Shown in pieces: positions 7,341 through 22,400 of a DNA stretch of 64,000 nucleotides. The notes beneath the pieces were generated by a model. The model made no database searches, was not told the DNA's origin, and saw only the letters and a list, made by a program, of their open reading frames with translations. The stretch comes from a virus: positions 64,001-128,000 of the IMG/VR virus record IMGVR_UViG_3300044846_005100. One strand, given 5' to 3'. The stretch's first letter is position 1, and every line of letters begins with the position of its first letter. A program made the translations under genes and the position numbers.

Positions 7341-7344
7341 TGTT

Positions 7345-7700
7345 TAAATTTTAATATGAATAATTAGCACCCTATTCTACTACTTGCGTTTGCTACCTCG
7401 ACCAGGTTTCCGTAATAGAATAGGGTCACAATAGTTGTGAGTGTGTAGTTTAATCTACCATTTAGTTTCATCTAACTATCTTGCTGATAACTCCCAATAC
7501 CATAGCATTTACATTCCGCTACATTAAACAAGCATATATCATGTATCTTGTGTGTATTCTGCATATTACTATGCAGTTTCAATCAGGGTTTAGATTATTT
7601 TAAGTTAATAATTTTTTTCTATGGGCTACTAAACCTTTTATAGTAGCAAATTTTTTCAAAAAAAAATGTCAATGAACGCTATTCCCCGAAGGGATTTTAT
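7345..7700 (-). ncRNA. structured non-coding leader or ncRNA
   Basis: Series of hairpins including CTGCATA-GTAA-TATGCAG and a 15-bp stem 7369-7426 capped by a junction. Confidence 0.5.
7666..7695 (-). promoter_or_regulatory. boxB/boxA-like antitermination element
   Basis: Minus strand ATCCC-TTCG-GGGAAT hairpin followed by AGCGTTCATTGACAT. Confidence 0.5.
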
Positions 7701-7710
7701 TTTGATTTGT

Positions 7711-7887
7711 TTAAGACTCTCTCAAACAAATTTCTTTTTTTCTTTCTTCTTGGTAATGATACCAATCTTTTTGTGTTTTTGTTAAAGGCTTTTCTTTTTT
7801 ATCTCTCTCGGAAGCTAAGTATCCTTCATCATAAATCCTTGCATATACTTTAGGAAAAACTTTTTCGATTATTTTTTTTACTACCAT
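7711..7887 (-). CDS. hypothetical protein
   Basis: Start reassigned to MVVKK, downstream of the promoter. Confidence 0.6.
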   Translation of the reverse strand: MVVKKIIEKVFPKVYARIYDEGYLASERDKKEKPLTKTQKDWYHYQEERKKEICLRES

Positions 7888-7906
7888 GATATATTTTTTA
7901 AGGGGT

Positions 7907-7937
7907 TGCAAAATTAATACTATTTTTTTTTAATCAA
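7907..7937 (-). promoter_or_regulatory. canonical Bacteroidetes sigma-A promoter
   Basis: TTG-N18-TAATTTTG on the minus strand. Confidence 0.7.
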
Positions 7938-7949
7938 CGTATTTTTTTT

Positions 7950-8333
7950 CTATTCCTGATAAAATTCAATATAAGTGTCCGAATGCCAAATTCTTATCAT
8001 ACTGATTTTTTTGAAAATTTGTACCTTAATCACTTTGTTCATCTCATCCAAATAACGCTGATAGGTATAAGGTGTTCCGTTTTCAGTAGTTCCTTCTTCA
8101 ATTTCTCCAAAAGGAGTGAATACTTCTGATGCTCCTCCAACTATAACCATCTTTATTTTAGGAGAGCAGTTATAATTCACATAAAACAAAACCTGCTTAT
8201 TTATCATTCTTTTCTCCTCTGTGAGCCTTTTTTGTGCTATAAGGGTAGTTGTGTTCATTAAATACTCATCGCATTGAGAGAAGGCATTAAATGAAGCCAA
8301 AATAGAGATTAATATTATTGTTATTTTTTTCAT
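7950..8333 (-). CDS. secreted hypothetical protein
   Basis: Signal peptide MKKITIILISILASFNAFSQ. Confidence 0.75.
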   Translation of the reverse strand: MKKITIILISILASFNAFSQCDEYLMNTTTLIAQKRLTEEKRMINKQVLFYVNYNCSPKIKMVIVGGASEVFTPFGEIEEGTTENGTPYTYQRYLDEMNKVIKVQIFKKISMIRIWHSDTYIEFYQE

Positions 8334-8337
8334 CTGA

Positions 8338-8709
8338 TTAGTTTTTAAAACTGATTGTTAAATTTTCTATTGAAACCATATTATTTTCAAAATACTTTGT
8401 TTCTTTGTAGAATCCTTCAAGAAATTCTTTTGTATCTAAAGGTAGAGAATCAAAATGTCTTCTGATTTTAGCCCTTGTCTTTGACTTTTTAAATTTATCC
8501 TTACAATACAAATATTTTTCGGTAAGTCTTTTGTACAAAAATATAGGCTCTACCATTGATAATAATTCTTTTATTGTTTCGGTTTCTTTCAGCTTAACAA
8601 TAAAATCTTTTGCCTGCTCAAAGGTATCAAAGATTTCAGTAGAATATACTACTATTTCTTCTCCGATTTTTTCCAATGCTATAAAGCCGATTGTTTTTAA
8701 TTTTAACAT
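8338..8709 (-). CDS. hypothetical protein
   Basis: 123 aa ORF in tight operon. Confidence 0.7.
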   Translation of the reverse strand: MLKLKTIGFIALEKIGEEIVVYSTEIFDTFEQAKDFIVKLKETETIKELLSMVEPIFLYKRLTEKYLYCKDKFKKSKTRAKIRRHFDSLPLDTKEFLEGFYKETKYFENNMVSIENLTISFKN

Positions 8710-8719
8710 AATTTTAAAT

Positions 8720-9268
8720 TTAAGAAATTATTGAATGAAACTTTTTTAAACTACACTCTGATAATAAAATATTTTTCTTGTTATTTGCTTCAATATTAAT
8801 GCCTGATGCTGATTCTATTATTAAATAGTCTGCTTCGGTTTGTTGTAAAATATTTTGAAAAGGAATATGTGAAGAACCCGAAGAGATTTCCACTATAAAA
8901 ATAGGTTCTTCATCTCCTTTATAAGAATTATTTTTAACTCTAAATCTTTTTATTGTAAAAGCACTATTGTTTTCTAACATAGTGTATAAGTCGGTAGCGG
9001 ATTTAGTAGTGGTAGCCAAAGGAATATTTAAAGTGAAAATAATTTCTATCTTTACTATTTCCTTATAAGAAGTAATTACAAAATCTAACATGGTGTTTTC
9101 TCCCTCTGCAATAGCTTCTTTCAAGTCAGTTTCACTCCAGCCATACTCGAATATTTCATCGTCAGCTTGTTCATCTTGTTCAGCATCGTCATACTCTTTA
9201 ACAATGTAACCATTAATCTCTGACTTATCATCTTTCCAATATCCTTCTATTTCAAAATACTTACTCAT
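8720..9268 (-). CDS. hypothetical protein with acidic N-domain
   Basis: YFEIEGYWKDDK...FVITSY. Confidence 0.75.
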   Translation of the reverse strand: MSKYFEIEGYWKDDKSEINGYIVKEYDDAEQDEQADDEIFEYGWSETDLKEAIAEGENTMLDFVITSYKEIVKIEIIFTLNIPLATTTKSATDLYTMLENNSAFTIKRFRVKNNSYKGDEEPIFIVEISSGSSHIPFQNILQQTEADYLIIESASGINIEANNKKNILLSECSLKKFHSIIS

Positions 9269-9275
9269 AATATTA

Positions 9276-9872
9276 TTATTTTATTTCAATTAATTCTCCA
9301 TTTTCATTTTCCATGTATTGAGCATCTTCGGGGTCTTCCCATTCTGTATAGTAATACACTTCGTTTTTGTAAGCCTCTTCAAGCAATTTTTTATCACTAA
9401 CATTGGCTGAATCGGGATTACTTTCTCTCAAATATTCTATCAAATATTTTTCTTCTGAAAAGTATTTTTCCCCATCCATAACACAATATCCCTCATTCAT
9501 ACCTTTACCTGTGGCATCACATTTTCTAGCGAAAAAAGTAGTAGAACCTACAACATCCTCGATAGATAACTCCACACTCTCAAAGTAATCTGAACTATCA
9601 TTTTTGTATTCGGTGTAAATGTAAATACTATTAGAATAAACTATCAATTGGATGATATTTGTTCTCCATTCAGTTTCTTCATCCTCATCATCAAAAAACT
9701 TAACATCCCCATCAATATCAACCCTCATATTACTGATAAAAGGATTTTGTTTTATAAGTTCTTGACAGACAGTTATTCTGCCTTTATCTACATCTGTAAA
9801 GTTGATTCCAATAGAGTGGACATCATAACTATTTCCGTTTTCGGTAGAATACCCTTTTAATACTTTTTTCAT
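9276..9872 (-). CDS. acidic two-domain hypothetical protein
   Basis: C-terminal ARKCDATGKGMNEGY...YYYTEWED. Confidence 0.75.
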   Translation of the reverse strand: MKKVLKGYSTENGNSYDVHSIGINFTDVDKGRITVCQELIKQNPFISNMRVDIDGDVKFFDDEDEETEWRTNIIQLIVYSNSIYIYTEYKNDSSDYFESVELSIEDVVGSTTFFARKCDATGKGMNEGYCVMDGEKYFSEEKYLIEYLRESNPDSANVSDKKLLEEAYKNEVYYYTEWEDPEDAQYMENENGELIEIK

Positions 9873-9881
9873 GGATGTATA

Positions 9882-10112
9882 TTATTTAGTTAATGTGAAA
9901 AATTCGTGTAAATCATAAATGTCAAATAAATGCTCATCTTCTTGGTCATCTATAATAATAATAGCTTCTTTAGCATAAGGATTTTCAGGTTCAAATCCTA
10001 TAATAGGATATGCTTTCCCTATGGTTAAGGCTTCTTCTCTTGTGCTGTGCATTACACATTTTTGTATTGCATACAAGTTAGTACCTATTTCTAAATCTCC
10101 TCTTTCTATCAT
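9882..10112 (-). CDS. small acidic SH3-like hypothetical protein
   Basis: LTIGKAYPI...IIDDQEDEH; first gene after a boxed promoter. Confidence 0.7.
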   Translation of the reverse strand: MIERGDLEIGTNLYAIQKCVMHSTREEALTIGKAYPIIGFEPENPYAKEAIIIIDDQEDEHLFDIYDLHEFFTLTK

Positions 10113-10145
10113 AACATTATTGTTTTTGTTGGTTAAAAAATATGA

Positions 10146-10214
10146 TGCAAAATTACTGCTTTTCGTGTTGGGTGTGTTAGCAATTTTGTTGCAAAAACTT
10201 TAAAAATTGTTGCA
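10146..10214 (-). promoter_or_regulatory. early promoter with tandem TGCAACAA boxes (copy 6)
   Basis: TAATTTTGCA at 10146-10155; boxes at 10186 and 10207. Confidence 0.8.
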
Positions 10215-10223
10215 AAAAAATAT

Positions 10224-10415
10224 TTATATATCTTTTGCAATTTTTACGAGTTCTGCAAATTCCCGATAAGACAATATTTTTCGCTCCATATTGGTTAATC
10301 CTAAATACTTGTAGTCAATATCCTCAAAGCTATACACAAACATTCTCCCGATGGCTTTATATGTAGTGGTTTTAACCAATCTATACCCAAATAATCCTAA
10401 AATAAATTTTATCAT
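10224..10415 (-). CDS. hypothetical protein
   Basis: 63 aa ORF in operon. Confidence 0.65.
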   Translation of the reverse strand: MIKFILGLFGYRLVKTTTYKAIGRMFVYSFEDIDYKYLGLTNMERKILSYREFAELVKIAKDI

Positions 10416-10422
10416 AATTTTT

Positions 10423-10776
10423 TTATTTGTTTTTTAATAATAAATTAATTTGTTCTAATTGTGCTTCTTTTACAAATTGATAATCTTCTGCACCAACTGC
10501 ATTTTCCAATACCTCTTCAATTCCGTCTTCAAATCTATTGTAGCCTACAATTTTTCCGTCTCCTGCATTAATTATTTTTGCACATTCAGCATAATCATCC
10601 TCCCAAAGAGCAAAACACAATTTCTTTCCAAAGGCAATGTTATACACATACTTCGGGCATCTTATTTCTTTTTCAAGGTCAAACAATGCTTGTCCTACTT
10701 CGTCATCGTGCTGAAATAGGTCATATAATTCCATTTTGTTTTTTAATGCTTCAAATTTTTCTTTAATGTTTTTCAT
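10423..10776 (-). CDS. hypothetical protein
   Basis: 117 aa acidic ORF. Confidence 0.7.
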   Translation of the reverse strand: MKNIKEKFEALKNKMELYDLFQHDDEVGQALFDLEKEIRCPKYVYNIAFGKKLCFALWEDDYAECAKIINAGDGKIVGYNRFEDGIEEVLENAVGAEDYQFVKEAQLEQINLLLKNK

Positions 10777-10782
10777 TTGCTT

Positions 10783-11016
10783 TTATCTATTTATTCTAAC
10801 GTGTCCAAAATAAGTTTCTTCTAAATTCTCTATAATTCGGTCATTCACTAAGTCCATAAATGTCGATATTTCATAATAGCCTAAATGCTCCTCTTCATCG
10901 CTTGTCATACCTAAGTTTTTCAACTCATCTATCATTTCGTGGGTATTATCAAATACTTGATTTTCGATTTCTTCTAAAATTCTTCTATTTTCTAATAATA
11001 ATACTATAATTTTCAT
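10783..11016 (-). CDS. small acidic hypothetical protein
   Basis: 77 aa; YEISTFMDLVND. Confidence 0.7.
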   Translation of the reverse strand: MKIIVLLLENRRILEEIENQVFDNTHEMIDELKNLGMTSDEEEHLGYYEISTFMDLVNDRIIENLEETYFGHVRINR

Positions 11017-11022
11017 AATTTT

Positions 11023-11253
11023 TTATTTAACTAATTCTTTAATTATATCTTCTACTTCTCCTTCTTCTAAAGCATCACAAATGGAATTAAACTCTCTTCC
11101 ATTTTCTTCTTTAGTTATTCCTCTTAGTCTTGCTATCTCATCAAGAAGTCCTATTATTTCCACGTTACTTTGTGGATTAGGAGATAAAAATCTTGATTCA
11201 GTTTCGTTATTTTGAGCTATATATTTTAACAGCTCTTTCCATTTGTCTTCCAT
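11023..11253 (-). CDS. small acidic hypothetical protein
   Basis: 76 aa ORF. Confidence 0.7.
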   Translation of the reverse strand: MEDKWKELLKYIAQNNETESRFLSPNPQSNVEIIGLLDEIARLRGITKEENGREFNSICDALEEGEVEDIIKELVK

Positions 11254-11256
11254 AAA

Positions 11257-11484
11257 CTATTGAATTTTACTTGTTTTTAAATTTTCTATTGTTATAAATC
11301 TAATTACATCAATGCTTGAATGTATTTCCTCTTCATTGAAAGCACGTTGGAATCCTTCTAAGGTATAAACTCTACCTTGTCTTTCACATTCATCCATCCA
11401 TTCTTTTTCTGTTAATTCCGTAAATCCTTTGTCGATTGAAATATCTTGACAATCTAAAACATATACTCTAATTTCTTTATTCAT
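11257..11484 (-). CDS. small hypothetical protein
   Basis: ECERQGRVYTLEGFQRAFN motif. Confidence 0.7.
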   Translation of the reverse strand: MNKEIRVYVLDCQDISIDKGFTELTEKEWMDECERQGRVYTLEGFQRAFNEEEIHSSIDVIRFITIENLKTSKIQ

Positions 11485-11506
11485 ATTTTTTTTATTTTAA
11501 TTGTTC

Positions 11507-11713
11507 TTAATAATTATCCTGCAATCCTTCATACCAAAAGTCAGGGAAGTCACAAGGCTCACTACTGAAACCACAAACACAATTAATTTCTTCATCATCT
11601 GTGTTGCAAAACATAACATCCCCACAACCACCACAATTAACTAAATTTACTCCTATTGCTTGTATTTTCTCTTGGAAGGCTATTTGGCTTATTGCAAACT
11701 CTCTTTTTGTCAT
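11507..11713 (-). CDS. small Zn-ribbon protein
   Basis: CxxC...CxC; paralog of the N-terminus of 11725-12243. Confidence 0.7.
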   Translation of the reverse strand: MTKREFAISQIAFQEKIQAIGVNLVNCGGCGDVMFCNTDDEEINCVCGFSSEPCDFPDFWYEGLQDNY

Positions 11714-11724
11714 AATTTTTAATT

Positions 11725-12243
11725 TTAATATAAACCACTTTCTTGTTCAAAAATACACTCTGCTATAATCCAATCCGAATCCTCTCCATAAATTTCAATG
11801 ATTTCCTCCACGCTATTATAATAAGAGGAAATGTGTTCTTCTATTTCTTCTTCTGTGTAATTGTCTAAGTTTATATAACTCTCAATAAATTCATCATCCT
11901 CATACTCTGGCAACTCTCTATTTTTTTCTTTAAACTGAAAATATCTTTTATCAAGTTGTCTTCCGTATTGTTGATTATCTAAATCTGTACATTTCCAACC
12001 TAGCTCCTCCATTATTTTTTCTGAATTAAATTCAGCACTATCTTCTAATCCTTCATACCAATAGTCTTGGCAATCGTTGAAATATACTTTTTCTCCACAA
12101 CCAAAACATTCAGTTTCTTCCTCGTTTATATCGTGCATTATGATTGCTGAACATTCATTACATTCTACAATATTTATATTGGCAAATTCTTGGATTCTTT
12201 TTTGCAATTCTATTTGTCTTATTGCTAATTCTCTTCTGTCCAT
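11725..12243 (-). CDS. Zn-ribbon fused to a highly acidic domain
   Basis: CNEC...CFGC then a D/E-rich C-domain. Confidence 0.75.
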   Translation of the reverse strand: MDRRELAIRQIELQKRIQEFANINIVECNECSAIIMHDINEEETECFGCGEKVYFNDCQDYWYEGLEDSAEFNSEKIMEELGWKCTDLDNQQYGRQLDKRYFQFKEKNRELPEYEDDEFIESYINLDNYTEEEIEEHISSYYNSVEEIIEIYGEDSDWIIAECIFEQESGLY

Positions 12244-12257
12244 TATTTGATAAGTTT

Positions 12258-12470
12258 TTAGTTAATACATCCTTTTACAAATTTCTCAATAGCTTCATCC
12301 CAATCTAAATCCTCGTCTTCCCATTTGTGGTCTTCGGGATATATGAAAATAAATCTTTCTGCGATTGTGATAGCGGTATCTATTTGTTGGAAAAAACTAC
12401 CATTAATTTTTTCTTCTAATAATTGGTTGTACATTATGTAACCTACCACTCTTGCTAATTCCTTATTCAT
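12258..12470 (-). CDS. small acidic hypothetical protein
   Basis: 70 aa; WEDEDLDWDE. Confidence 0.7.
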   Translation of the reverse strand: MNKELARVVGYIMYNQLLEEKINGSFFQQIDTAITIAERFIFIYPEDHKWEDEDLDWDEAIEKFVKGCIN

Positions 12471-12471
12471 A

Positions 12472-12684
12472 TTATTTGATATGTTTTAATGAATATAAAC
12501 TCGTCCAAATATGAGCAAATCCTTTCTCTACACAGAAGTTGTATAAATCTTTGTCTGACATTCCTTCAAAATCATGGTCATCAAACATAGTAGATAATTC
12601 TTCCTCACAATGTGTTCTTTCATCCTCTATATAAAAATTTACTACTGAAATTATTGAGGTACGTTCTTCTCTTCCTATGGTCAT
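12472..12684 (-). CDS. small acidic hypothetical protein
   Basis: 70 aa ORF. Confidence 0.7.
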   Translation of the reverse strand: MTIGREERTSIISVVNFYIEDERTHCEEELSTMFDDHDFEGMSDKDLYNFCVEKGFAHIWTSLYSLKHIK

Positions 12685-12688
12685 AATA

Positions 12689-12997
12689 CTATTGGTTTAA
12701 ATCGTTAAAAAATATTGAATAAATGAATTCGTAGATAGCCACCATATCATCGGTTTCTAAGTCTCCTAAATCCGTTTCTGTGTCATCGGATGTACGGATA
12801 ATAATCAAGTTTCTACGCATTTCTATTTCTTTCACTACTTCGGGGGAATAACAATCTCCCACTACTACAATAGACACATCGTCTTCCTTACTTACTGATA
12901 TGATACTATCTGTTTCAATAATTTCAGAGCAATCTTTTAAAATATTTGCTCTAAGCGTTTGGATAGTTTCATTATAATCTACAAATTGTTTTTTCAT
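12689..12997 (-). CDS. acidic hypothetical protein
   Basis: 102 aa; first gene after a boxed promoter. Confidence 0.7.
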   Translation of the reverse strand: MKKQFVDYNETIQTLRANILKDCSEIIETDSIISVSKEDDVSIVVVGDCYSPEVVKEIEMRRNLIIIRTSDDTETDLGDLETDDMVAIYEFIYSIFFNDLNQ

Positions 12998-13026
12998 ATT
13001 CTTTTTATTTTAAATAATTAATTTAC

Positions 13027-13116
13027 TGCAAAATTACTACCTTTTGGTGTTTGGGTGTTACAACTTTTGTTGCAATTTATTTAATTTTTGTTGCATTATT
13101 TTGATAATTTTGTTGA
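13027..13116 (-). promoter_or_regulatory. early promoter with tandem TGCAACAA boxes (copy 5)
   Basis: TAATTTTGCA 13027-13036; boxes at 13067 and 13088, degenerate third at 13110. Confidence 0.8.
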
Positions 13117-13157
13117 TACAAAGGCTATCAAGAATAATATGCCCATAATACAAACTC

Positions 13158-13736
13158 CTAACCACATACCACATTTTTTATATATCTTTTTTTCATTGAA
13201 ACAAATATTTCCAAAGTCTTAAATTTAGATACTAAACAATCTTCACTAAATTGTAACTTGCTACCCATGATAGGACTATCTCCATGTCCATTTGTAACTT
13301 TTTGGCAAATCTCTTCTGCTTTTTCAGAAGTGAATTGAGTAGGCTCAATAGACATTGTGGTACAAATTTGTTTATTATTATCCACTCCTAAAGAAATACA
13401 AGTTTCTTTATAATAAACAATAGTGTTACATCGTTCCAAACAAGGATATTTTTTGATATTATCAATTATTTTCTCTAATTGACTTATACTTTTTTCAGTA
13501 AATTCAATTATGGAAGACATTTCCTTGATATTGGTAGCAAAAGGGTCTGCTATATCATGGATGATGATTCCATTTTCAGTTTGTTGGGCAAACTTATTTT
13601 GATTTTCTAATAGTGAATAATATTCTTTTTTGTCCATTGTGTACCCTCCATTATTTGAATAGCCCATATTCTGTGGGAGTTGTCCTACATTTGTTTCTTG
13701 AATCGCATAATCTGCGTTTGTTACTAATTTGTGCAT
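13158..13736 (-). CDS. hypothetical protein (GYSNNGGYTM module fusion)
   Basis: N-terminus paralogous to 20022-20186. Confidence 0.75.
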   Translation of the reverse strand: MHKLVTNADYAIQETNVGQLPQNMGYSNNGGYTMDKKEYYSLLENQNKFAQQTENGIIIHDIADPFATNIKEMSSIIEFTEKSISQLEKIIDNIKKYPCLERCNTIVYYKETCISLGVDNNKQICTTMSIEPTQFTSEKAEEICQKVTNGHGDSPIMGSKLQFSEDCLVSKFKTLEIFVSMKKRYIKNVVCG

Positions 13737-13755
13737 AATATATAATTTAATTTTT

Positions 13756-14172
13756 TTAATCTAAAAATAATGATGTAATATCTTCTACATGAACAATATC
13801 CTCCTTGCTAAATAGTACTTGATAATCTCCTTCTAAATAATCCTTCACTTCAATTAATAATACTTTAAAATCATGATTGGTTAGCAAAAATTTCAACTCT
13901 TCCTTTATAATCCATTGGTAGAAACATTCAAGGTTTTTATAAGCACAAAATCTACCTTTCATTATTTTATCATCAAATACATCTCTATTTATATATTTTC
14001 CTCCATTAATTCCTGCATCCTTAAAAGGTGCTGGTAATTCCTCATGTAATTTAAGCATATTTTCTGTTTCAGAAGTTTTCCCTAAAACATATCTATCGGA
14101 ATCAATAGCTCTATTGGCTCTAAACATTCCATATCCGTCTGTGTGTTCTACTCTAACTATTTTCTTGTTCAT
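13756..14172 (-). CDS. conserved phage early protein, possible ADP-ribosyltransferase-like fold
   Basis: RVEH..G.G, H...P.P..D, FCAY, QW, QVLF motif pattern; the ORF is solid, the fold is speculative. Confidence 0.4.
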   Translation of the reverse strand: MNKKIVRVEHTDGYGMFRANRAIDSDRYVLGKTSETENMLKLHEELPAPFKDAGINGGKYINRDVFDDKIMKGRFCAYKNLECFYQWIIKEELKFLLTNHDFKVLLIEVKDYLEGDYQVLFSKEDIVHVEDITSLFLD

Positions 14173-14201
14173 ATTTTATTATTATTGGTTAAAAAATATA
14201 G

Positions 14202-14269
14202 TGCAAAATTATGATGTTTTGGGATTCTATCCTAACAATTTTGTTGCAATTAGTTTAAATTTTGTTGCA
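14202..14269 (-). promoter_or_regulatory. early promoter with tandem TGCAACAA boxes (copy 4)
   Basis: TAATTTTGCA 14202-14211; boxes at 14241 and 14262. Confidence 0.8.
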
Positions 14270-14429
14270 TTGTTTCTAACTTCGGGATTAACTCTTCAAG
14301 TAACTCTTTTTTACCTAAAAAAAATCCATAAGATTCCGTATCTTCATAATTCATTACATCGGGTGTATTATCTATTATGTTAGAATACTCCTCTAGTCTT
14401 TCTTTTAATTCTTTTATAAGATTTTCCAT
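14250..14429 (-). CDS. small hypothetical protein (59 aa, not in ORF track)
   Basis: MENLIKELKERLEEYSNII...MQQNLN*. Confidence 0.65.
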   Translation of the reverse strand: MENLIKELKERLEEYSNIIDNTPDVMNYEDTESYGFFLGKKELLEELIPKLETMQQNLN

Positions 14430-14460
14430 TTTTTATGCTTTTATTGTGAAATAATTTTGA

Positions 14461-14817
14461 TTATGCTTCTTTTGAGGAATTATACCATTGTACAAATTCA
14501 ACACAAGCGTTATAAACTGCTTCAATTTTAGTATTGCAATCATTTGAAAAAGCAAACCCATTCTCTATATATACATCAATAGCACAACCTTGTGGCGCAA
14601 ATAATACATTTGTAAATTCATTATAGTTTTCTATCTTCTCCACTACTTGCATAAGCCAATTCCAATCGGTGTCGTATTTTGTACAATCTAAAAATCTATC
14701 AGTATGCCATTTTTTATGATTAGGAGTATTTTCAAAACCCCAAAATCCTTCATTATTTTGGTAGCAACCCATAAACTCTGCTAATAACTTATTATTTTCT
14801 ATAATTTGTGTATTCAT
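14461..14817 (-). CDS. conserved phage protein (LLAEFMG...DWNWLM.VVEKI family)
   Basis: Paralog of the C-terminus of 15073-15642. Confidence 0.75.
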   Translation of the reverse strand: MNTQIIENNKLLAEFMGCYQNNEGFWGFENTPNHKKWHTDRFLDCTKYDTDWNWLMQVVEKIENYNEFTNVLFAPQGCAIDVYIENGFAFSNDCNTKIEAVYNACVEFVQWYNSSKEA

Positions 14818-14818
14818 T

Positions 14819-15064
14819 TTAACAATAATTTAGTATAAAATTTATTAATTTTTCATCAACTCCTTTAGCCTCCAATTCTCTATAAACATGGTCAGCATCT
14901 AAGCATTCACTTATCCACTTGTTACCATTTATATCTAAAAAGCCTATAACATATCCACTATTCATTTCTCCTTCAACTTCGGGAGTTTTCCAAAAGCCTG
15001 CCATTGAAATTTGTTCGTTTGGGGTGCTTATCGACACACATTTCTTAAAATCTATTTCTTGCAT
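14819..15064 (-). CDS. hypothetical protein
   Basis: 81 aa ORF in operon. Confidence 0.7.
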   Translation of the reverse strand: MQEIDFKKCVSISTPNEQISMAGFWKTPEVEGEMNSGYVIGFLDINGNKWISECLDADHVYRELEAKGVDEKLINFILNYC

Positions 15065-15072
15065 AATTTTAG

Positions 15073-15642
15073 TTATTTATTTTGATTATAATGTTCAACA
15101 AAAGAAACACAACCATTGAAAACTCCTTCGATATTCAAATCCGCCAATGAATAATAAATTTTTTCATAATCTTCCCCCATAAATTCACTTAATGAATAAC
15201 ATTTTTTTACCACTTCTACAAGCAAATTCCAATCCGAATCGTATTTTAAATATCTTGCAATATTCTCAATTATCTTTTCTTTTTCTATTTCTCGTGTGAA
15301 ATAATAAGGGCTATCACTCCATGAATAATGCCCTCCATGATATGAAAGATTATCAAATACTCCCATAAATTCTGCCAACAATTGTTTTTTTGCTACTATG
15401 TCCGTAATGGAAACTATTTCTTTTAACTCAATTTGAGATAAATCCATATCTATTGTAAATCCTAAGGTAACATCACAACTATTAAAAACATGATTTGCTT
15501 TTTCAAGATTATAAGTAATCTCTTTTTTTGCCATTTCTAAAGCCTCTTCTCTACTATCTGTATATACTACTCCATTATCGAAAGAAGTCCATATTGTGCT
15601 TGTAGTTAAGCTATATTCCCATTTTTTGTTTGATTGATTCAT
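15073..15642 (-). CDS. two-domain hypothetical protein
   Basis: C-terminal LLAEFMG...KYDSDWN. Confidence 0.75.
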   Translation of the reverse strand: MNQSNKKWEYSLTTSTIWTSFDNGVVYTDSREEALEMAKKEITYNLEKANHVFNSCDVTLGFTIDMDLSQIELKEIVSITDIVAKKQLLAEFMGVFDNLSYHGGHYSWSDSPYYFTREIEKEKIIENIARYLKYDSDWNLLVEVVKKCYSLSEFMGEDYEKIYYSLADLNIEGVFNGCVSFVEHYNQNK

Positions 15643-15653
15643 TTTTTTAATTT

Positions 15654-15989
15654 TTAATAAGTTAAACTATCTAAATAAGTGCTTGGAAATTCCCACGTTA
15701 TATCCTCATAAACTCGTTCTACAAATTCATTGATAAATTTATCATCTATTGTAGGCATAACTCCGTCATAGGATTCTAATAGATATTCCTTTGCTTCTTC
15801 TTTGTTAAGCCAATTAGTAACAACTTCTTTTATTCTATTCCTACTATAAACATCGTCTATATCCTCTGCATTTTCGGGAATATAACAAGGTGCATCGGGG
15901 TTATTTTTGAAATTTTCATCGTTATAATACCCTCCCTCCGCATTGGATTCTAAGCCGTATTTTTCTATTATTGTATTTAAATTTTCCAT
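15654..15989 (-). CDS. acidic hypothetical protein
   Basis: CYIPEN...WEFPSTYLD. Confidence 0.75.
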   Translation of the reverse strand: MENLNTIIEKYGLESNAEGGYYNDENFKNNPDAPCYIPENAEDIDDVYSRNRIKEVVTNWLNKEEAKEYLLESYDGVMPTIDDKFINEFVERVYEDITWEFPSTYLDSLTY

Positions 15990-16255
15990 TTTATATTTAA
16001 AATTGATAAAGATTTTAAAAAATTAATAACTTTTTCTTTTTCTTCTTGTGTAGCCTTCGGGAACATACCATAGTCAGAAGTAAAAAAGCTACTACCTACA
16101 AATCCTAAATTGTTTTCTTCCATTTCAAAAGATATATCTTGTATCTCGTAACAATCAATTGGCTCATCTCCCCAAAATAACTTATTTTCAGCATCCGCCA
16201 TAGTTACTATATGAATATTTCCATTAATGTTTAAAAATTCTATAATTTGCTCCAT
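15977..16255 (-). CDS. hypothetical protein
   Basis: 92 aa ORF. Confidence 0.7.
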   Translation of the reverse strand: MEQIIEFLNINGNIHIVTMADAENKLFWGDEPIDCYEIQDISFEMEENNLGFVGSSFFTSDYGMFPKATQEEKEKVINFLKSLSILNIKWKI

Positions 16256-16257
16256 AC

Positions 16258-16524
16258 TTATTTGTTTAAATGATTATTACCTAATAAAATTATATCTGTC
16301 TCTATTATATCTTCTTTGGTATTAAACTCTTGAAATCTTAAATCAAAATTAAGATTATTATCTACTAATAATTTTATATATTGATTCATTTCTTCAATTT
16401 GCCAAATTTCAAAAAATTCATCGGGTTTTACTCCTGCAATTCCATTTGTTTTATCGCACCAAATAGTATAATAAAATGTATTTTTATCTTTTACTGATTC
16501 TAATAAGTTTTTTAAATTTTCCAT
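16258..16524 (-). CDS. hypothetical protein
   Basis: 88 aa; first gene after a boxed promoter. Confidence 0.7.
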   Translation of the reverse strand: MENLKNLLESVKDKNTFYYTIWCDKTNGIAGVKPDEFFEIWQIEEMNQYIKLLVDNNLNFDLRFQEFNTKEDIIETDIILLGNNHLNK

Positions 16525-16557
16525 TTTTTATGATTTTTACTTGTTAAATAATTTTAC

Positions 16558-16626
16558 TGCAAAGTTACTGCGGATTCTATTCTCAATGTTAGCAATTTTG
16601 TTGCAATTTTATTAATTTTTGTTGCA
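16558..16626 (-). promoter_or_regulatory. early promoter with tandem TGCAACAA boxes (copy 3)
   Basis: TAACTTTGCA 16558-16567; boxes at 16598 and 16619. Confidence 0.8.
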
Positions 16627-16634
16627 ACTTTATT

Positions 16635-16952
16635 TTAATTATTTTTTATTGTGTTTGGTTTAGGCTCTGCCATACTATCCTTTGAGGCACTACCTCCTTC
16701 GGGAACAACAAAGTCTTTTTTATCACTATTATAATAATACTTTTCTGCTTCCTCTATCTCGTGTACATAGGCTAATTTCAAATCTATCTCTCCGTTTTCT
16801 ATGCACATGAGTCTAATTAGTTTATCGGGTGCATAGTCTTCGGGTATTACCTCCACTCCCATGATAGGAAAAATTATTTTGGTGCTTTCAGGTACATATA
16901 CCATTGGCGTACCTGCCTTGCAACACTTAATTAATTCTTTTATAGTCTTCAT
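16635..16952 (-). CDS. hypothetical protein
   Basis: 105 aa ORF. Confidence 0.7.
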   Translation of the reverse strand: MKTIKELIKCCKAGTPMVYVPESTKIIFPIMGVEVIPEDYAPDKLIRLMCIENGEIDLKLAYVHEIEEAEKYYYNSDKKDFVVPEGGSASKDSMAEPKPNTIKNN

Positions 16953-16955
16953 ATT

Positions 16956-17636
16956 CTATTGATTTTCTACTTTTTTATAGATACTCTCTCCGTTGCTAAA
17001 CGTTGCTAAACGTCCGTACTCTTCACTTGATTCTTTAAAGGCTTTTTCTACCATTTCAATTGCTTCTGCCTTTGTTTTTTCTACCCATTTAACTATGTTT
17101 TTAGCTTGCATAGCTTTTAAGCCTGCGTTCATTTCTGTAGTATATAAAAACTCCTCTTCCACTCTGTCCTCGTCTATTTCATAGCCGTTTATCATAACAT
17201 CATATTCCCAATCCAATGTAGCACCCTCGTAATAACCTGCCACGAGTTGCATTGTTATTTCAAAGGTACATTCTATATCCCCGAAATTTTTACTTTTTTG
17301 CATTTCAAAGAAATTTGTACAAGGATAATTTCTATCCATATCGCATTTATTTACGCAATAGCCATACCATTTTTTATACAAAGGATTTTCTTTTAATTTC
17401 TCGATAGTACAATCTTTTTGATGTTCTATATCATCTAAATCTATCTCTTCGGTTTCTACTCCCTCTGAAAGCATATTGTGTCCACAACTTTGGCACTCGT
17501 TTAATGTATCTAAATCATATTCCCAATCTCTATGTATTTCCTCACAATCTTGACAAACTTTTGTTTGAATCTCTTGGTTTGTAAGTACTACAAAGTAGTT
17601 GCTTGCGTTTGTTTTTGCGAAATTACTTGCACCCAT
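16956..17636 (-). CDS. conserved Bacteroidetes-phage early protein with Zn ribbon
   Basis: MGASNF, CxxC x2, GYYEGATLD, FSNGESIY. Confidence 0.75.
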   Translation of the reverse strand: MGASNFAKTNASNYFVVLTNQEIQTKVCQDCEEIHRDWEYDLDTLNECQSCGHNMLSEGVETEEIDLDDIEHQKDCTIEKLKENPLYKKWYGYCVNKCDMDRNYPCTNFFEMQKSKNFGDIECTFEITMQLVAGYYEGATLDWEYDVMINGYEIDEDRVEEEFLYTTEMNAGLKAMQAKNIVKWVEKTKAEAIEMVEKAFKESSEEYGRLATFSNGESIYKKVENQ

Positions 17637-17642
17637 ATTTTT

Positions 17643-17891
17643 TTATTTTTTAGTGTTATTTAATGTTTTTCTGAAATAATATTGTTCAATGTATCTCAAA
17701 GTATCTATAGCTTTAGATGATATTCTATCTTTGCCTATTTCAAACCCTATACTTTTAAGATAGGCTTTCTTTGTTTCTATACTATGAATATCTAAAAGAT
17801 TTTGACTATTTAGCCAATTAAAATAATGTGTATTTTCAATTGGAATACTTGTATCTATATCTTTAATTTTGAATAACGTATTTTTAGCCAT
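17643..17891 (-). CDS. hypothetical protein
   Basis: 82 aa ORF. Confidence 0.65.
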   Translation of the reverse strand: MAKNTLFKIKDIDTSIPIENTHYFNWLNSQNLLDIHSIETKKAYLKSIGFEIGKDRISSKAIDTLRYIEQYYFRKTLNNTKK

Positions 17892-17914
17892 TTTAAGCGT
17901 GTTTATTTTTGTTT

Positions 17915-17945
17915 TGAATAAGAACGCCCACTCAAGGACGTTCTG
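17915..17945 (-). terminator. hairpin, possible intrinsic terminator
   Basis: Minus strand AGAACGTCC-TTGAGT-GGGCGTTCT followed by TATT. Confidence 0.5.
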
Positions 17946-17970
17946 TTTAAATTTGCTATATTAGAGTAGC

Positions 17971-18381
17971 TTAATTGATAGTAGGTAGATAGTTTAAAAA
18001 ATAATCTTCATCAAACCATTGCATAGTACCTTTATAATTATCATTGTATATTAATACTCCATTTGATTCAATTGATTCATAGTGTACCAATACGGCTATG
18101 GACTCTTGAAACGTGTCCTTACAAAGTATTTTTGTAGTGTCAAACAATATAGTGGCTAATTCCTCTACAAAAAAGTCTACATAAATTTTAACCACAATTG
18201 TAGGTTCTATTTGTAGCACTCCATTGGATTCATATTTACCTTCTCGCAATTGGCACAATATTTCAGTATTGTTTGCTTTTAAGCCTCCATACAATTCAAT
18301 GATTCTGTCTTTTGTTTTTTCAAAATCTAATTTGCCTAACGTTCCAATATTCATACCAACGTTTAATTCTATTTTACGCAT
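17971..18381 (-). CDS. putative S-adenosylmethionine lyase (T3 SAMase-like anti-restriction protein)
   Basis: Start MRKIEL after the promoter; GKYE...EPTIVV...LC...QESIAV...GVLIY parallels T3 SAMase GCYRE...EKTVRV...AC...QDCVLV...GLVY. Confidence 0.6.
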   Translation of the reverse strand: MRKIELNVGMNIGTLGKLDFEKTKDRIIELYGGLKANNTEILCQLREGKYESNGVLQIEPTIVVKIYVDFFVEELATILFDTTKILCKDTFQESIAVLVHYESIESNGVLIYNDNYKGTMQWFDEDYFLNYLPTIN

Positions 18382-18414
18382 GTTTTTTTCTTTTTTAATG
18401 ATTAATAAATATGA

Positions 18415-18482
18415 TGCAAAATTACTACCTTTGTGTATTGTGTCCAACAAGTTTTGTTGCAAAAAACACAACTTTTGTTGCA
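18415..18482 (-). promoter_or_regulatory. early promoter with tandem TGCAACAA boxes (copy 2)
   Basis: TAATTTTGCA 18415-18424; boxes at 18454 and 18475. Confidence 0.8.
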
Positions 18483-18486
18483 ATTC

Positions 18487-18717
18487 TTAATAAGTTTTAT
18501 TTTTATATAGGCTTGAAATTCTTTGGTTACGCACCCTTGTATTTGTCTTTCTTACTGAAATTCTTATCATTTCAATAAAAGATACTACCAAAAATAAACA
18601 TCCATAAGATACAATAAAGATATAAATATCAAAGTGCAATATATCTAAAATCATTGCGTATGTACTTGATATTATTGTTATTGTGCTAATAGCCAGCACT
18701 AAAATTGTTTTTTTCAT
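18487..18717 (-). CDS. small two-TM membrane protein
   Basis: Two hydrophobic helices and a basic tail. Confidence 0.7.
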   Translation of the reverse strand: MKKTILVLAISTITIISSTYAMILDILHFDIYIFIVSYGCLFLVVSFIEMIRISVRKTNTRVRNQRISSLYKNKTY

Positions 18718-18864
18718 TTTACTTTAATTTAATTTTTTTTATTAATACACGTTTCACATTGGAGGCATAAACCTAATTTATGTTTTTCTACAAAAAATAC
18801 ATTTTTACACGTATTATTTATGCAAAGTATTGGATATTTTTTCATTTTACTTTAATTTAATTTT
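18709..18864. repeat. 28-bp direct repeat flanking a small ORF
   Basis: TTTTTTCATTTTACTTTAATTTAATTTT at 18709-18736 and 18837-18864. Confidence 0.8.
18729..18845 (-). CDS. tiny Cys-rich (Zn finger-like) protein, 38 aa
   Basis: MKKYPILCINNTCKNVFFVEKHKLGLCLQCETCINKKN*. Confidence 0.55.
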   Translation of the reverse strand: MKKYPILCINNTCKNVFFVEKHKLGLCLQCETCINKKN

Positions 18865-18975
18865 GTTAAGTTTTTCTAAAATTAATACTATAAAAACTAT
18901 AAATATATACACTAAACAAGGTATAGTTGCTATTTTTAAGTCTGTGAACAAAAGTTCTTTTAATTCTACTATCAT
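18847..18975 (-). CDS. tiny single-TM protein, 42 aa
   Basis: MIVELKELLFTDLKIATIPCLVYIFIVFIVLILEKLNKIKLK*. Confidence 0.55.
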   Translation of the reverse strand: MIVELKELLFTDLKIATIPCLVYIFIVFIVLILEKLNKIKLK

Positions 18976-18977
18976 TT

Positions 18978-19217
18978 TTAATCTATTATTTCATTACCAA
19001 ACGTGTCTAAATTTTTACCCTCAAGTATATATATCATTGCTTCAAGGCTTTCATCCCCCCCGAATCCTTCTTCTTTTTCATGTACCTGCTTATATCTTAT
19101 CTCTATAGCTTTTTTAGCTTGTTGTTTTGATAGGTATGCACCTAAAAGTAAGCCCACCCCGAAACATATAATAAACATCCCGAATAAATTGTAATAGTTT
19201 AAACTTGTCTTTTTCAT
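18978..19217 (-). CDS. small membrane protein
   Basis: N-terminal TM helix. Confidence 0.7.
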   Translation of the reverse strand: MKKTSLNYYNLFGMFIICFGVGLLLGAYLSKQQAKKAIEIRYKQVHEKEEGFGGDESLEAMIYILEGKNLDTFGNEIID

Positions 19218-19247
19218 TTTGATTATATTTTAAGTTGTTATTTAATA

Positions 19248-19496
19248 TTAATTTTCTACTATTTCATTTTCAAAAATAGATTGATACTTTTTTGGTAGTT
19301 TTTTATACTTTGTAATTTTGTGTCCACTACTCCATGAATTTATGAACGTCTCAAGGATAACAAACGAATTATTTAAGCCACTTAGCACCCAATGCCCCGA
19401 ACCCAAAACTCCCTCGTTAAATTGGTGCGCTATGCCCCCTTTATCAATATAATCATTGATTAATTTGTCCGCAGTTTGATAATTGTATAATTTCAT
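19248..19496 (-). CDS. conserved phage hypothetical protein
   Basis: EGVLGSG...E.FINSWSSGH...Y.KLPKKY. Confidence 0.75.
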   Translation of the reverse strand: MKLYNYQTADKLINDYIDKGGIAHQFNEGVLGSGHWVLSGLNNSFVILETFINSWSSGHKITKYKKLPKKYQSIFENEIVEN

Positions 19497-19533
19497 ATCT
19501 TTATAATTTTAAGTTGTTATTATTTTAAATTTT

Positions 19534-19941
19534 TTATATTGTACTTTTTGAATAATTATTTACCAATTCTTTTATCTGATTTTCACTATATTTTTTGCAA
19601 ACATACTCCAATGCTTCTGAAATACTTGTAGCGTTTGGTACTTTTATAGTGGCTTTTGTTTTTAAATGTAGTGTATTTAATTCGGGTGCATATTTATGTA
19701 CCTCCAATCCAATTACTTTATTTTCAATCAAAGATAGTTTTTTCAATTCAAACGCTAAATTTACCACCTCTATAGTGAAATTAAATTTTTGAATATTTTC
19801 GGACGTTAAAGCCTCTAATTTGTCTATATTTTGAGTATAATAGTCAATCCTTAGCTTTTTAGCTTTTAACCCGAATTTGCCCTTACAATTCACTTTGTAT
19901 ATGCAATTTTTTACTAATTCTAATTTGTGTAATTTATTCAT
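19534..19941 (-). CDS. hypothetical protein
   Basis: Start reassigned to MNKLHK. Confidence 0.65.
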   Translation of the reverse strand: MNKLHKLELVKNCIYKVNCKGKFGLKAKKLRIDYYTQNIDKLEALTSENIQKFNFTIEVVNLAFELKKLSLIENKVIGLEVHKYAPELNTLHLKTKATIKVPNATSISEALEYVCKKYSENQIKELVNNYSKSTI

Positions 19942-20021
19942 ATTTTTTATTTTTACTACTTGCACCCCGAAAGGTGCAACGCTTTTGGCTTAAAGTCTAT
20001 TTATAGTTGCCAAAACAACTT

Positions 20022-20186
20022 TTAGTGTATTATAACTCCATTCGGAGTACGTTCGATTTTTTTGCCTATAGATTCTAAATATCTATAGTATTCGGCTTTA
20101 TTCATAGTATATCCACCATTATTTGAATATCCTACACTACTTGGAACGTTTGACACTTGTGTTTCTTTTTTTTGATTTTGTACCAT
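20022..20186 (-). CDS. small protein, 54 aa (not in ORF track)
   Basis: MVQNQKKETQVSNVPSSVGYSNNGGYTMNKAEYY...NGVIIH*; paralog of the 13158 N-terminus. Confidence 0.75.
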   Translation of the reverse strand: MVQNQKKETQVSNVPSSVGYSNNGGYTMNKAEYYRYLESIGKKIERTPNGVIIH

Positions 20187-20219
20187 TTTGATTATAATTT
20201 AAATTTATGAATAATTTGT

Positions 20220-20528
20220 TTAATTTGATTGAATTTTGCCATTTTTTACATCTATAATACCTTTAGGTATTTCCCCCCCTCTAAACATTACTTTTTGCCA
20301 CATTGGATAAAAGCACCCCGAAAAATATCTTACCGCAAAACAAGTACTATCAATTGCAATTAGTTTGTAATAGTTAGCCGAAACTCCAATTTCATTATCC
20401 ATGAATTTTGTAGTATTTGAGAAACCGTTGCCAAACCCCCTGCTATTATCTACAAGTCCATTTTTTTCTAATTGTAGCCAATTTGCTTTTGTTAAATCGT
20501 AAAAAACTAAATTTTTGTTATCTATCAT
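20220..20528 (-). CDS. hypothetical protein
   Basis: VRYFSGCFYP motif. Confidence 0.7.
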   Translation of the reverse strand: MIDNKNLVFYDLTKANWLQLEKNGLVDNSRGFGNGFSNTTKFMDNEIGVSANYYKLIAIDSTCFAVRYFSGCFYPMWQKVMFRGGEIPKGIIDVKNGKIQSN

Positions 20529-20539
20529 TTTAATATAAT

Positions 20540-20707
20540 TTAATTTTGTGAATTTTGTTTTAATTCCTTAATAATAGTTTTAATACCACCTTGTAAATAT
20601 CCTATAGTATAGGCATGAGACACTTTTTTTTCAGTAAATTGTGTTTCACTATCTTGTAAAAGACTTTCCAAAGTTTTTAAAATTGCATTTTTTTGTTGAT
20701 TTTTCAT
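20540..20707 (-). CDS. small protein, 55 aa (not in ORF track)
   Basis: MKNQQKNAILKTLESLL...SHAYTIGYLQGGIK; preceded by the repeated leader motif. Confidence 0.65.
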   Translation of the reverse strand: MKNQQKNAILKTLESLLQDSETQFTEKKVSHAYTIGYLQGGIKTIIKELKQNSQN

Positions 20708-20734
20708 TTTGATTATATTTTAATTTGTGAATAA

Positions 20735-21070
20735 TTAGTTTAATGTTATTAAAAAGTGTCTATCAAATTTATACCCTAATTCCTTAGCTATGTTATTGCA
20801 CGCCTTTAGCCAAAGGCTTGTATATAGCACCATTTTTGGACTTGTAGGATATTGTGTACCTAAATACCACAATATAGTATCTTTATTATCTATTTGACTT
20901 TGCAAACATTTGTATTTGTGCATAGATTCGCTTAACTCGCTTTTTGCCTCGTTTAACGTTTCACAATCTTTGAAAATAACATCCCAAACACTTTGTTCTA
21001 AATTATCATTGCTTTTAATAGCACCGCTTTTAATCATTGCAAATTTTGCTTTTTTACTTAATTTTTTCAT
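20735..21070 (-). CDS. first early gene, hypothetical
   Basis: Start reassigned to MKKLSKKAK with the repeated A-rich leader. Confidence 0.65.
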   Translation of the reverse strand: MKKLSKKAKFAMIKSGAIKSNDNLEQSVWDVIFKDCETLNEAKSELSESMHKYKCLQSQIDNKDTILWYLGTQYPTSPKMVLYTSLWLKACNNIAKELGYKFDRHFLITLN

Positions 21071-21197
21071 TTTATATTTTTTTAAGTTTTTAAATATTGT
21101 GTTTAACAGGAAACATAGTACACCCATTCACTTTTTGACATACCTCTAGCAGTAGCCTTTTAGTGCTTATGTACCAATCCCTCCCGATTAATAACAA

Positions 21198-21266
21198 TGC
21201 AAATATACAACATTCCGCACCCCTATTCCTACAACTTTTGTTACACAAAATAGTAATTTTGTTGCA
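21198..21266 (-). promoter_or_regulatory. early promoter with tandem TG(C/T)AACAA boxes (copy 1)
   Basis: TATATTTGCA 21198-21207; boxes at 21238 and 21259. Confidence 0.75.
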
Positions 21267-22163
21267 AAAGTAAAATAATTTCACAAAGGCTTCTATCCCC
21301 TCCCTCCCGAATATTTGCTATAATGGATAATAGAGAGGCAATCCACAGAGAGGCTATAATGGATGAATATACGGAGTTTGTCCTATACCCAACTCTATAT
21401 TCTCCCACTCGATACAAAATCGTGGCTTAGAACGCAAATATGGAGGTCATTATATTTCATCCACTGAAATATTTACACAACTCCCCCGAATTTTCCCCGA
21501 ATCATATCATAATAAACTCCCCTCGATTGGGTTAAGTAATTACCGCCCCCACTTGTGTAGCGTACCGCCCGAACGTCCGCCCCTTGCCCTTTGTATATTG
21601 TACTAATGGAACGCACCGAGTACCCACGTCTATACATTGCCTTATATAACTACCGCCTTATATATGTATAAACTAACTCAAGCCTCCGCCACCACCACCC
21701 ACGCACCCGAACAAGTGCCACGAGTGCCACCCCCTCGTCTCGATTCGTCCGCCTCGATTCGTTCCGAGTGCCTCCGCCACGTCCTCCGCACCTCCTCCGA
21801 GTTATTTTTTTTTGGGTATGCAAAAACTCCACAGAACTTTTCTCAAGGGGGGATTTCAAAATTGGGCTTTGTATGGTGGGCTTCGTAGGGAGGATACCCC
21901 ATTTTTTATCCACACAAACCATTTCGGGTATGTGAGTAAAAAAAATAAAATGGTGATATGGGGGTGATGATTATTTTTTATCCTCATATATGATTTTGGG
22001 TAGAGGGTAAAAAAATTTTAGGGGGTGGGGGTATGGATCTTTTTTTTGGATTTTTTCTGGGTGATTTTTTAGGCTATTTTGGATATTCAAAAACTGCACA
22101 TAAATAAATAAAGAAGGGATAAAAAAAGTGCCCAGTAAAATCAAGGGTTCCGAGAGGGCAAAA

Positions 22164-22400
22164 GTACATTTTTGTACTTTTCGTGTACATTTTTGTACTT
22201 TTGACACGCTGAAACCCGCATTTCTTCGTTGAGGGGTTTTTAAAAAATGGGTGACTTAGGGGGTGACTTAGGGGGTTATAATTTGTAAAGTAAAATGCTT
22301 ATAATTTGTAAAATAATTCTTGCTATTTGTACAAAAGTTTGTATCTTTGTATTTTAAAAAATAGAAAAAATAATTATGTTCACAAAATAATTATGTTCAC
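22164..22400 (+). repeat. cluster of four duplicated motifs (iteron-like)
   Basis: GTACATTTTTGTACTTTT x2 (22164, 22185); GGGTGACTTAGG x2 (22249, 22261); TTATAATTTGTAAA x2 (22276, 22299); AAAATAATTATGTTCAC x2 (22367, 22384). Confidence 0.85.
22320..22349 (+). promoter_or_regulatory. canonical sigma-A promoter; -7 region duplicated near 22489
   Basis: TTG-N19-TATCTTTG; TTTGTATCTTTGTATTTTAAAA recurs near 22485. Confidence 0.7.

Follow-up and report, generated by a model that had tools for sequence, protein, structure and literature searches.

A CCCGA/TCGGG excess in the putative early arm of a crAss-like phage, probably in the main an escape spelling left by a word purge

Introduction

Target avoidance in leading DNA is known for T5 and T7-like phages: in T7-like phages it is motif loss in the first-injected region that decides whether restriction takes effect, and the loss of a type I motif there is by itself sufficient for escape (PMC12455610), and in T5 cleavage at EcoRI sites is restricted to the first-step-transfer DNA, for which sparing by a phage nuclease has also been proposed. 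Here, a window of 64,000 nucleotides was analyzed, which corresponds to bases 64,001-128,000 of the 140,223-bp virus record IMGVR_UViG_3300044846_005100 (all feature coordinates are given in window numbering), and in which a first-pass annotation had described a strong excess of the pentamer CCCGA/TCGGG, confined to a stretch of about 14 kb, as a selected DNA mark. Our analysis indicates that this excess is probably, for the main part, an escape spelling which accumulated after a purge of the word CCWGA, together with other words, from the promoter-proximal ~14 kb of an arm considered to be the early one.

As in the first-step-transfer DNA of T5 and the early region of T7-like Autographiviridae (PMC12455610; bioRxiv 10.1101/866236), nuclease-type words are missing from both strands, and as in that leading DNA the affected region is one contiguous, hypervariable block of small, putatively early genes heading an arm, the rest of the genome keeping the words. 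The present case differs in that it concerns a crAss-like phage, for which stepwise entry is suggested by analogy, in that about ten words, including the asymmetric pentamer CCWGA, are purged at once, and in that the purge has left CCCGA behind as a positive footprint and extends to the proteins through the absence of Pro-Gly. The crAss-like clade is a new case of such avoidance, and its twist is that the visible signal is the escape spelling rather than the avoided word; no description of a word-purged early block in crAss-like phages was found in the literature searched.

The record holding the window (G000 below) encodes a terminase similar to those of Cellulophaga phage phi14:2 and of the gut crAss-like phage cr10_1, on the basis of which the phage is considered crAss-like. 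Genes are encoded on the minus strand up to window position ~22.0 kb, and those starting at ~22.3 kb and beyond lie on the plus strand. In phi14:2, which likewise has divergent arms and long non-coding stretches near the start of its replicative arm, the arm with the replication genes belongs to the early class (bioRxiv 10.1101/2020.03.07.982082); by analogy, the minus (replicative) arm is here taken as the early arm, the finding covering its promoter-proximal 14 kb. No word purge was reported in that phi14:2 study.

The phage part of G000 (bases 40-140 kb of the record, with 29% G+C and strongly depleted CpG) was compared with four whole related records, whose terminases are 92% (G002), 90% (G001), 90% (G004) and 73% (G003) identical, and with L078, the 5771-bp metagenome contig Ga0208463_1000992, which was the sole relative obtained from one metagenome scan. 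The early blocks of G002, G001 and G004 align with the window in patches only. The relative closest to the early block is L078, which is 80-96% identical to it in patches and is also free of GATC, CTAG and CCWGA.

Results

Excess of CCCGA/TCGGG in the promoter-proximal stretch

The excess noted in the first-pass annotation is real and lies above every null model that was tried. Exact counting returned 35 sites in the stretch concerned (Table 1), 0 in positions 1-7684 and 13 in the right arm (21929-64000), which makes CCCGA the most enriched 5-mer of the block, with 3.9 sites expected from its frequency elsewhere in the phage. When the encoded proteins are re-encoded with the codon usage of the rest of the phage, 1.2 coding sites are expected, as compared to 30 observed. 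The enrichment also persists in codon-preserving shuffles: a pooled synonymous shuffle yields 6.3 ± 2.2 coding sites (with a maximum of 14 in 1000 shuffles), and a gene-wise synonymous shuffle, which keeps the codon counts of each gene and is the most conservative null, yields 14.5 ± 2.5, the observed number being reached in 0 of 300. As had been stated, the word is written by means of rare codons, the readings being CCC GAA/GAT, TTC GGG and TCG GGG. More generally, CpG words are increased in the block, CAG/CTG words are decreased, and GATC and CCWGG are absent. With regard to placement in stem-loops, site 19966 (in a ribozyme described below) and perhaps site 7685 are the only cases, and a terminator scan gave a result no better than chance.

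Probable escape spelling of an avoided word

The codon pairs CCW GAN (Pro-Glu/Asp) and TCW GGN (Ser-Gly) represent a single word, CCWGA, read on opposite strands. This word occurs 6 times in the G000 block as compared to 27.1 times expected by re-encoding (a ratio of 0.22), the corresponding ratios of the control words ACWGA, GCWGA and TCWGA being 0.64-0.89, and the early blocks of the relatives show its depletion as well, to 0.33 (G002), 0.26 (G001) and 0.08 (G004) of expectation. In the G000 block Pro-Glu is spelled CCC GAA in 8 of 11 cases and Pro-Asp CCC GAT in 5 of 6, versus 7 of 118 in the rest of the phage, and CCC GAN accounts for 17 of the 18 Pro-Glu/Asp pairs in the early blocks of the three relatives; when the four phages are pooled, the spelling is found in 30/35 cases in early blocks and in 19/400 elsewhere (p = 2.5e-28). 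Ser-Gly is spelled TCA/TCT GGN once in ten cases in the G000 block and 4 times in 29 across early blocks, versus 80/118 elsewhere; the G000 block instead uses TCG GGN or AGY GGN. The L078 contig spells all of its Pro-Glu (4/4) and Pro-Asp (1/1) pairs with CCC, and contains neither GATC nor CCWGA in 5.8 kb.

This choice depends on the base that follows the proline codon, CCC being found 13 times before G and twice before another base, and CCT/CCA 5 times before G and 49 times before another base (Fisher p = 2e-8 in the G000 block, and 3e-11 pooled over four phages); the effect was looked for in the rest of each of the four genomes and was not found. Depletion affects both orientations, as the observed-to-expected ratios on the coding strand are 0.16 for CCWGA and 0.33 for TCWGG, 0.09 for CTGAAG and 0.0 for CTTCAG, and 0.22 for CTCAG and 0.34 for CTGAG, which indicates that the target is double-stranded DNA rather than RNA or the messenger. 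Furthermore, CCGG is absent from the 100-kb phage part of G000 (28.5 expected), and with CCWGA purged and CCGG absent, CCC GAN is the sole remaining spelling of Pro-Glu/Asp.

The loss of one word and the gain of the other can be compared directly. The CCWGA deficit and the CCCGA excess amount to 21 and 29 in G000, 10 and 9 in G002, 9 and 7 in G001, and 11 and 8.5 in G004, CCCGA being 12- to 17-fold up in the early blocks of the latter three. Purging of CCWGA on both strands is thus seen in four phages, with a deficit matching the excess in three of them, and in G000 the loss of CCWGA accounts for ~20 of the 30 coding sites (about two thirds). The density of CCHGA, which is 2.85 per kb in the block versus 3.26 per kb in the rest, and the bases following CCCGA, which show the same spectrum as those following CCWGA elsewhere (including a preference for AG), fit a plain replacement of CCWGA by CCCGA. 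Avoidance of CCWGA/CCWGG-type sites, which the first-pass annotation had named as the explanation that would undo its own, therefore explains the excess largely, but leaves ~10 coding sites and the spacer sites of G000 uncovered.

An altogether different codon usage, with early genes being tuned to host tRNAs before the 27 tRNAs of the phage are made and thereby acquiring more G/C-ending codons and GC-rich words, appears scarcely probable as the explanation. It would be in line with a third-codon-position G+C content of about 0.2-0.3 in the block versus 0.1-0.2, with phage tRNAs that read A/T-ending codons (none of the 27 being for CCC, GGG or CGG), and with the codon adaptation shown by leading regions of plasmids (PMC13478746). 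However, codon usage as the sole cause is contradicted by the dependence on the next base (CCC before G in 13 of 15 cases), by the excess that remains when each gene keeps its codon counts, and by the strand symmetry of the purge, CCC GAN and TCG GGN making the same double-stranded word; the loss of the palindromes AAGCTT, TGATCA and ATGCAT also speaks against it.

The wider word desert

CCWGA is one of a larger set of words that are nearly or wholly absent from the same region (Table 1). The right edge of this desert is sharp and located at the divergence point of the arms, and its left edge lies at ~8 kb in a 2-kb profile; the GATC void, which had been reported correctly, extends further left than the other purged words and spans 3412-22036. 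Most of the purged words are what we take to be recognition sequences of well-known restriction enzymes. By comparison with re-encoding, the G000 block contains 0 GATC (16.2 expected), 3 CTAG (23.0), 0 CTGAAG (11.1) and 0 GGTGA (11.5). All four early blocks have lost, or nearly lost, CTGAAG, AAGCTT (0 in total, as compared to 16.8 expected in the pooled blocks), TGATCA, ATGCAT, GGTGA, CTCAG and ACWGT, with AGCT being halved, while the loss of GATC and CTAG is confined to G000 and its close relative L078. The block signature is present in G000, G001, G002, G004 and L078, G003 being without such a block. In G000 the desert, the CCCGA excess and the boxed promoters (see below) occupy the same stretch. 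Since Pro-Gly is always spelled with CCNGG, the avoidance reaches the protein sequence: Pro-Gly is found 0 times in the early block of G000 and 2 times in total in those of three relatives (0 in G002, 1 in G001 and 1 in G004), versus 28-73 times elsewhere per genome.

As in the genome-wide avoidance of palindromes and restriction sites that is familiar from phages, AAGCTT, TGATCA, ATGCAT, AGCT, GATC and CCGG are under-represented relative to a codon-aware null. In the present phage, however, avoidance extends over the whole phage part for CCGG alone, the purges of the other words being limited to 14 of the 100 kb. CCGG is also absent from ~100 kb of G002 (38.1 expected) and occurs 6 times in G001 (43 expected).

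Foreign or mutationally distinct DNA, which would carry the word usage of a donor or a local mutation bias, is a very unlikely source of this pattern. The block is indeed hypervariable, aligning in patches only between relatives with a 90%-identical terminase, every protein tested is an ORFan, and CpG is less depleted than elsewhere (rho of 0.55-0.77 versus 0.12-0.46). Yet four phages carry the same signature, sharp-edged and at the same architectural position, in genes that are not homologous, the G+C content is the same as in the rest (29%), and a mutation bias leaves the loss of GATC, AAGCTT, GGTGA and Pro-Gly unexplained.

Proposed cause of the purge

The purge is strand-symmetric, confined to one block, recurrent in relatives and arithmetically linked to the CCCGA excess; nuclease selection on DNA that is exposed before protection is, as we infer, its best-supported cause. 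DNA-cutting enzymes, namely restriction systems of the host or else a phage-encoded nuclease, would meet the block before protection is in place, and selection would then remove CCWGA/TCWGG and about ten other nuclease-type words from it, after which Pro-Glu/Asp could be written only as CCC GAN, and Ser-Gly only as TCG GGN or AGY GGN, so that CCCGA/TCGGG would accumulate. The suggestion in the first-pass annotation that the block is under special selection, probably related to defence, is supported by these results. Its alternative of methylation sites is not borne out as regards self-methylation, because the three main DNA methyltransferase families searched for (PF00145, PF01555 and PF02086) had no match in the 140-kb record, and the phage therefore cannot rely on self-methylation of those kinds. 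Identity of gene 17971-18381 (-) as a SAM lyase received no support from Pfam, PHROGs or a PDB sequence search.

Sites outside the escape spelling

Several points weigh against escape from nuclease targets as the explanation of the excess. Ten coding sites of G000 are located in frames without a synonymous escape (referred to as class 3), as compared to 1.07 in the pooled shuffle (0/500); these comprise TTC GGG five times (three of which are in the 79-codon gene 18978-19217), xxC CCG AAG three times, TAT CGG GAA and ATC GGG AGA. TTC is paired with GGG, and TTT with other Gly codons (p = 0.005). Escape from a purged synonym was ruled out as the origin of TTCGGG, as TTTGGN and TTCGGH words are undepleted, and so was a clustering of rare codons, adjacent G/C-ending codons numbering 148 versus 152.7 expected. 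In the spacer, at 21130-21930, the seven sites exceed the 1.75 expected from a dinucleotide-preserving shuffle (0/1000), CCCGAA alone occurring 6 times versus 0.53 expected. To our knowledge, there is no enzyme for CCWGA. End repeats and physical genome ends were looked for in the G000 record, which is complete according to CheckV, and none was found; first entry or first action of the block is suggested by analogy, and Pfam and PHROG searches with its ten largest proteins returned no known anti-restriction family. Derivation of the class-3 sites from CCWGA through amino-acid-changing substitutions was also considered and judged unlikely, as the supposed ancestors would need rare codons too.

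About a third of the G000 sites (TTC GGG, C CCG AAG and those of the spacer) therefore fall outside the escape explanation, and because the class-3 and spacer sites are not escape spellings, an additional selected word, beyond the by-product, is possible. A broader reading, namely that CCCGAA/TTCGGG is itself a selected, oriented word (serving to bind an injected or early protein, or acting in the manner of Chi or of a signal that orients a translocase) that reads one way at 9-17 kb and the other way at 17-22 kb, with the loss of CCWGA being secondary or separate, seems unlikely. The class-3 sites, which need two to three rare codons consecutively, and the spacer excess are in its favour. However, the class-3 excess is absent from the relatives, with observed and expected numbers of 2 and 0.9 in G002, 1 and 0.65 in G001, and 0 and 0.66 in G004, and with no such site in L078, where the orthologue of site 17280 reads TTC GGA; the spacers of G001 and G004 contain CCCGCCC-type words instead. 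Nothing beyond CCCGA[A/T] is shared by the surroundings of the sites (the information in the flanks being at most 0.33 bit), the spacing is irregular, with gaps of 11-1779 nt, and about two thirds of the coding sites have no alternative spelling when neither CCWGA nor CCGG is allowed. Of the sites compared between G000 and L078, 4/4 escape sites and 1/4 others are kept, which at 80-96% identity is compatible with neutrality and decides nothing.

The orientation switch, which in the first-pass annotation was part of the argument for a mark, has the pattern that was claimed: on the plus strand, TCGGG is read at each of the 12 sites in 12334-16840, and CCCGA at 14 of the 15 sites in 17280-21706. 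This association of orientation with gene block (Fisher p = 1.3e-4, for a break point picked after the data had been seen) counts in favour of an oriented word, and G002 has a similar proximal/distal tendency, which is absent from G004. Nevertheless, all genes of both blocks are on the minus strand, the distal block being rich in Pro-Glu/Asp and the proximal block containing Ser-Gly and Phe-Gly (Table 1), and it is this composition that produces the switch; the scarcity of Pro-Glu/Asp in Block B and of Ser-Gly in Block A can itself be counted in favour of an oriented word. In Block B, Ser-Gly written as TCG GGG is an escape spelling, and Phe-Gly written as TTC GGG is not covered by escape. As with Chi and KOPS-type polar words, a short word is over-represented and its orientation flips at one point; unlike in those systems, the excess is contained within 14 kb and the flip tracks the dipeptide content of genes on the same strand.

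Taken as a selected mark or an array of binding sites, CCCGA is thus mostly unsupported, given the lack of a longer consensus, the irregular spacing and the share of coding sites that is attributable to escape. That the word has a positive function of its own in this single lineage is possible but unproven, and we hold it to be improbable. In a specific and distinctly unlikely version, CCCGAA(G), written with two or three consecutive rare codons and repeated in the spacer, would have been recruited in the leading segment on top of the escape spelling as an oriented word, flipping at ~17 kb, which an injected or very early protein would read in order to protect the DNA or pull it in.

Gene content, promoter units and spacer

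The promoter-proximal stretch contains 38 solid small genes and 2 doubtful spacer open reading frames (ORFs). Pfam and PHROG searches with the ten largest proteins of the block gave no informative family match, Megablast of the block against GenBank phages returned zero matches, and the viral collection yielded no usable close relatives of genes 16956-17636, 18978-19217 and 19534-19941.

Table 1. Features of the promoter-proximal part of the minus arm (window numbering)
Feature	Position	Strand	Description
CCCGA/TCGGG stretch	7685..21928	.	35 sites, 27 of them CCCGAA/TTCGGG
Word desert	8000..22036	.	CCWGA, CTGAAG, AAGCTT, GGTGA, CTCAG, ACWGT, CCNGG, GATC and CTAG nearly or wholly absent; AGCT halved
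Block A, small ORFan genes	9276..16952	-	CCCGA on coding strand; CCC GAA/CCC GAT 12/16; xxC CCG AAG 3
Block A dipeptides	9.3-17.0 kb		Pro-Glu/Asp 16, Ser-Gly 4, Phe-Gly 5
Block B, small ORFan genes	16956..21127	-	TCGGG on coding strand; Ser-Gly TCG GGG; Phe-Gly TTC GGG 5 in solid genes
Block B dipeptides	17.0-21.2 kb		Pro-Glu/Asp 1, Ser-Gly 6, Phe-Gly 8
Promoter unit 1 of 6	10123-10215	-	Paired TTGCAACAAAA boxes and TAnnTTTG-type -7 element
Promoter units 2-6	13000-13114, 14174-14288, 16535-16645, 18387-18501, 21227-21285	-	As unit 1; all six units belong to repeat families D1-D4
Pistol ribozyme	19954..20020	-	Rfam RF02679, 65.1 bits (gathering threshold 34.5), E 3.5e-10
Non-coding spacer between divergent arms	21130..22300	.	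C-rich on plus strand, 41-44% G+C, 7 sites

In each promoter unit, two TTGCAACAAAA boxes at a distance of 21 bp accompany a -7 element of the TAATTTTG type. Within this arm of the phage part, pairing of the boxes is confined to 10184-21257 in the purged block, single matches being found elsewhere in the record; G002, G001 and G004 have similar box pairs in their own early blocks. The early genes of phi14:2 did not yield a shared promoter motif, whereas the present block is headed by six repeated units that combine paired boxes with a -7 element of Bacteroidetes type. Comparison of G000 with L078 shows that whole genes have been exchanged between conserved promoter units. The pistol ribozyme is located between two early-block genes, and CCCGA site 19966 lies within its UUCG-capped hairpin.

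In the 1.1-kb spacer, the ORFs 21473-21637 and 21650-21922 look spurious. Its architecture is conserved in G001, G002 and G004, the right part being 82% identical and the C-rich part being conserved in architecture only, and it carries two short repeats, GTACATTTTTGTACTTTT and GGGTGACTTAGGGG, each present twice. The spacer may be an origin, or it may specify an early non-coding RNA of the kind described for phi14:2.

To the left of the window, bases 1-40000 of the G000 record have 40% G+C, a normal CpG content, many GATC sites and few long ORFs under code 11, and CCGG occurs there at near expectation (50 versus 55). This part holds 26 of the 27 tRNA genes of G000, and is either a module of other origin or a chimeric join. 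A tRNA-Cys(GCA) gene stands alone in the plus arm, at 24961-25032 (+), far from the main tRNA array.

Discussion

Avoidance of one word can make another over-represented, as its negative image. The actual signal in this clade of crAss-like phages is the desert, with its sharp boundaries and about ten missing words, that heads the arm regarded as early. If nuclease pressure on the first-exposed DNA is indeed the cause, stepwise or polar entry into the host is predicted for the clade, and the purged words, CCWGA included, would read out the specificities of the host nucleases. In that case, the purge would also mark the bounds of the block that is likeliest to hold counter-defence genes.

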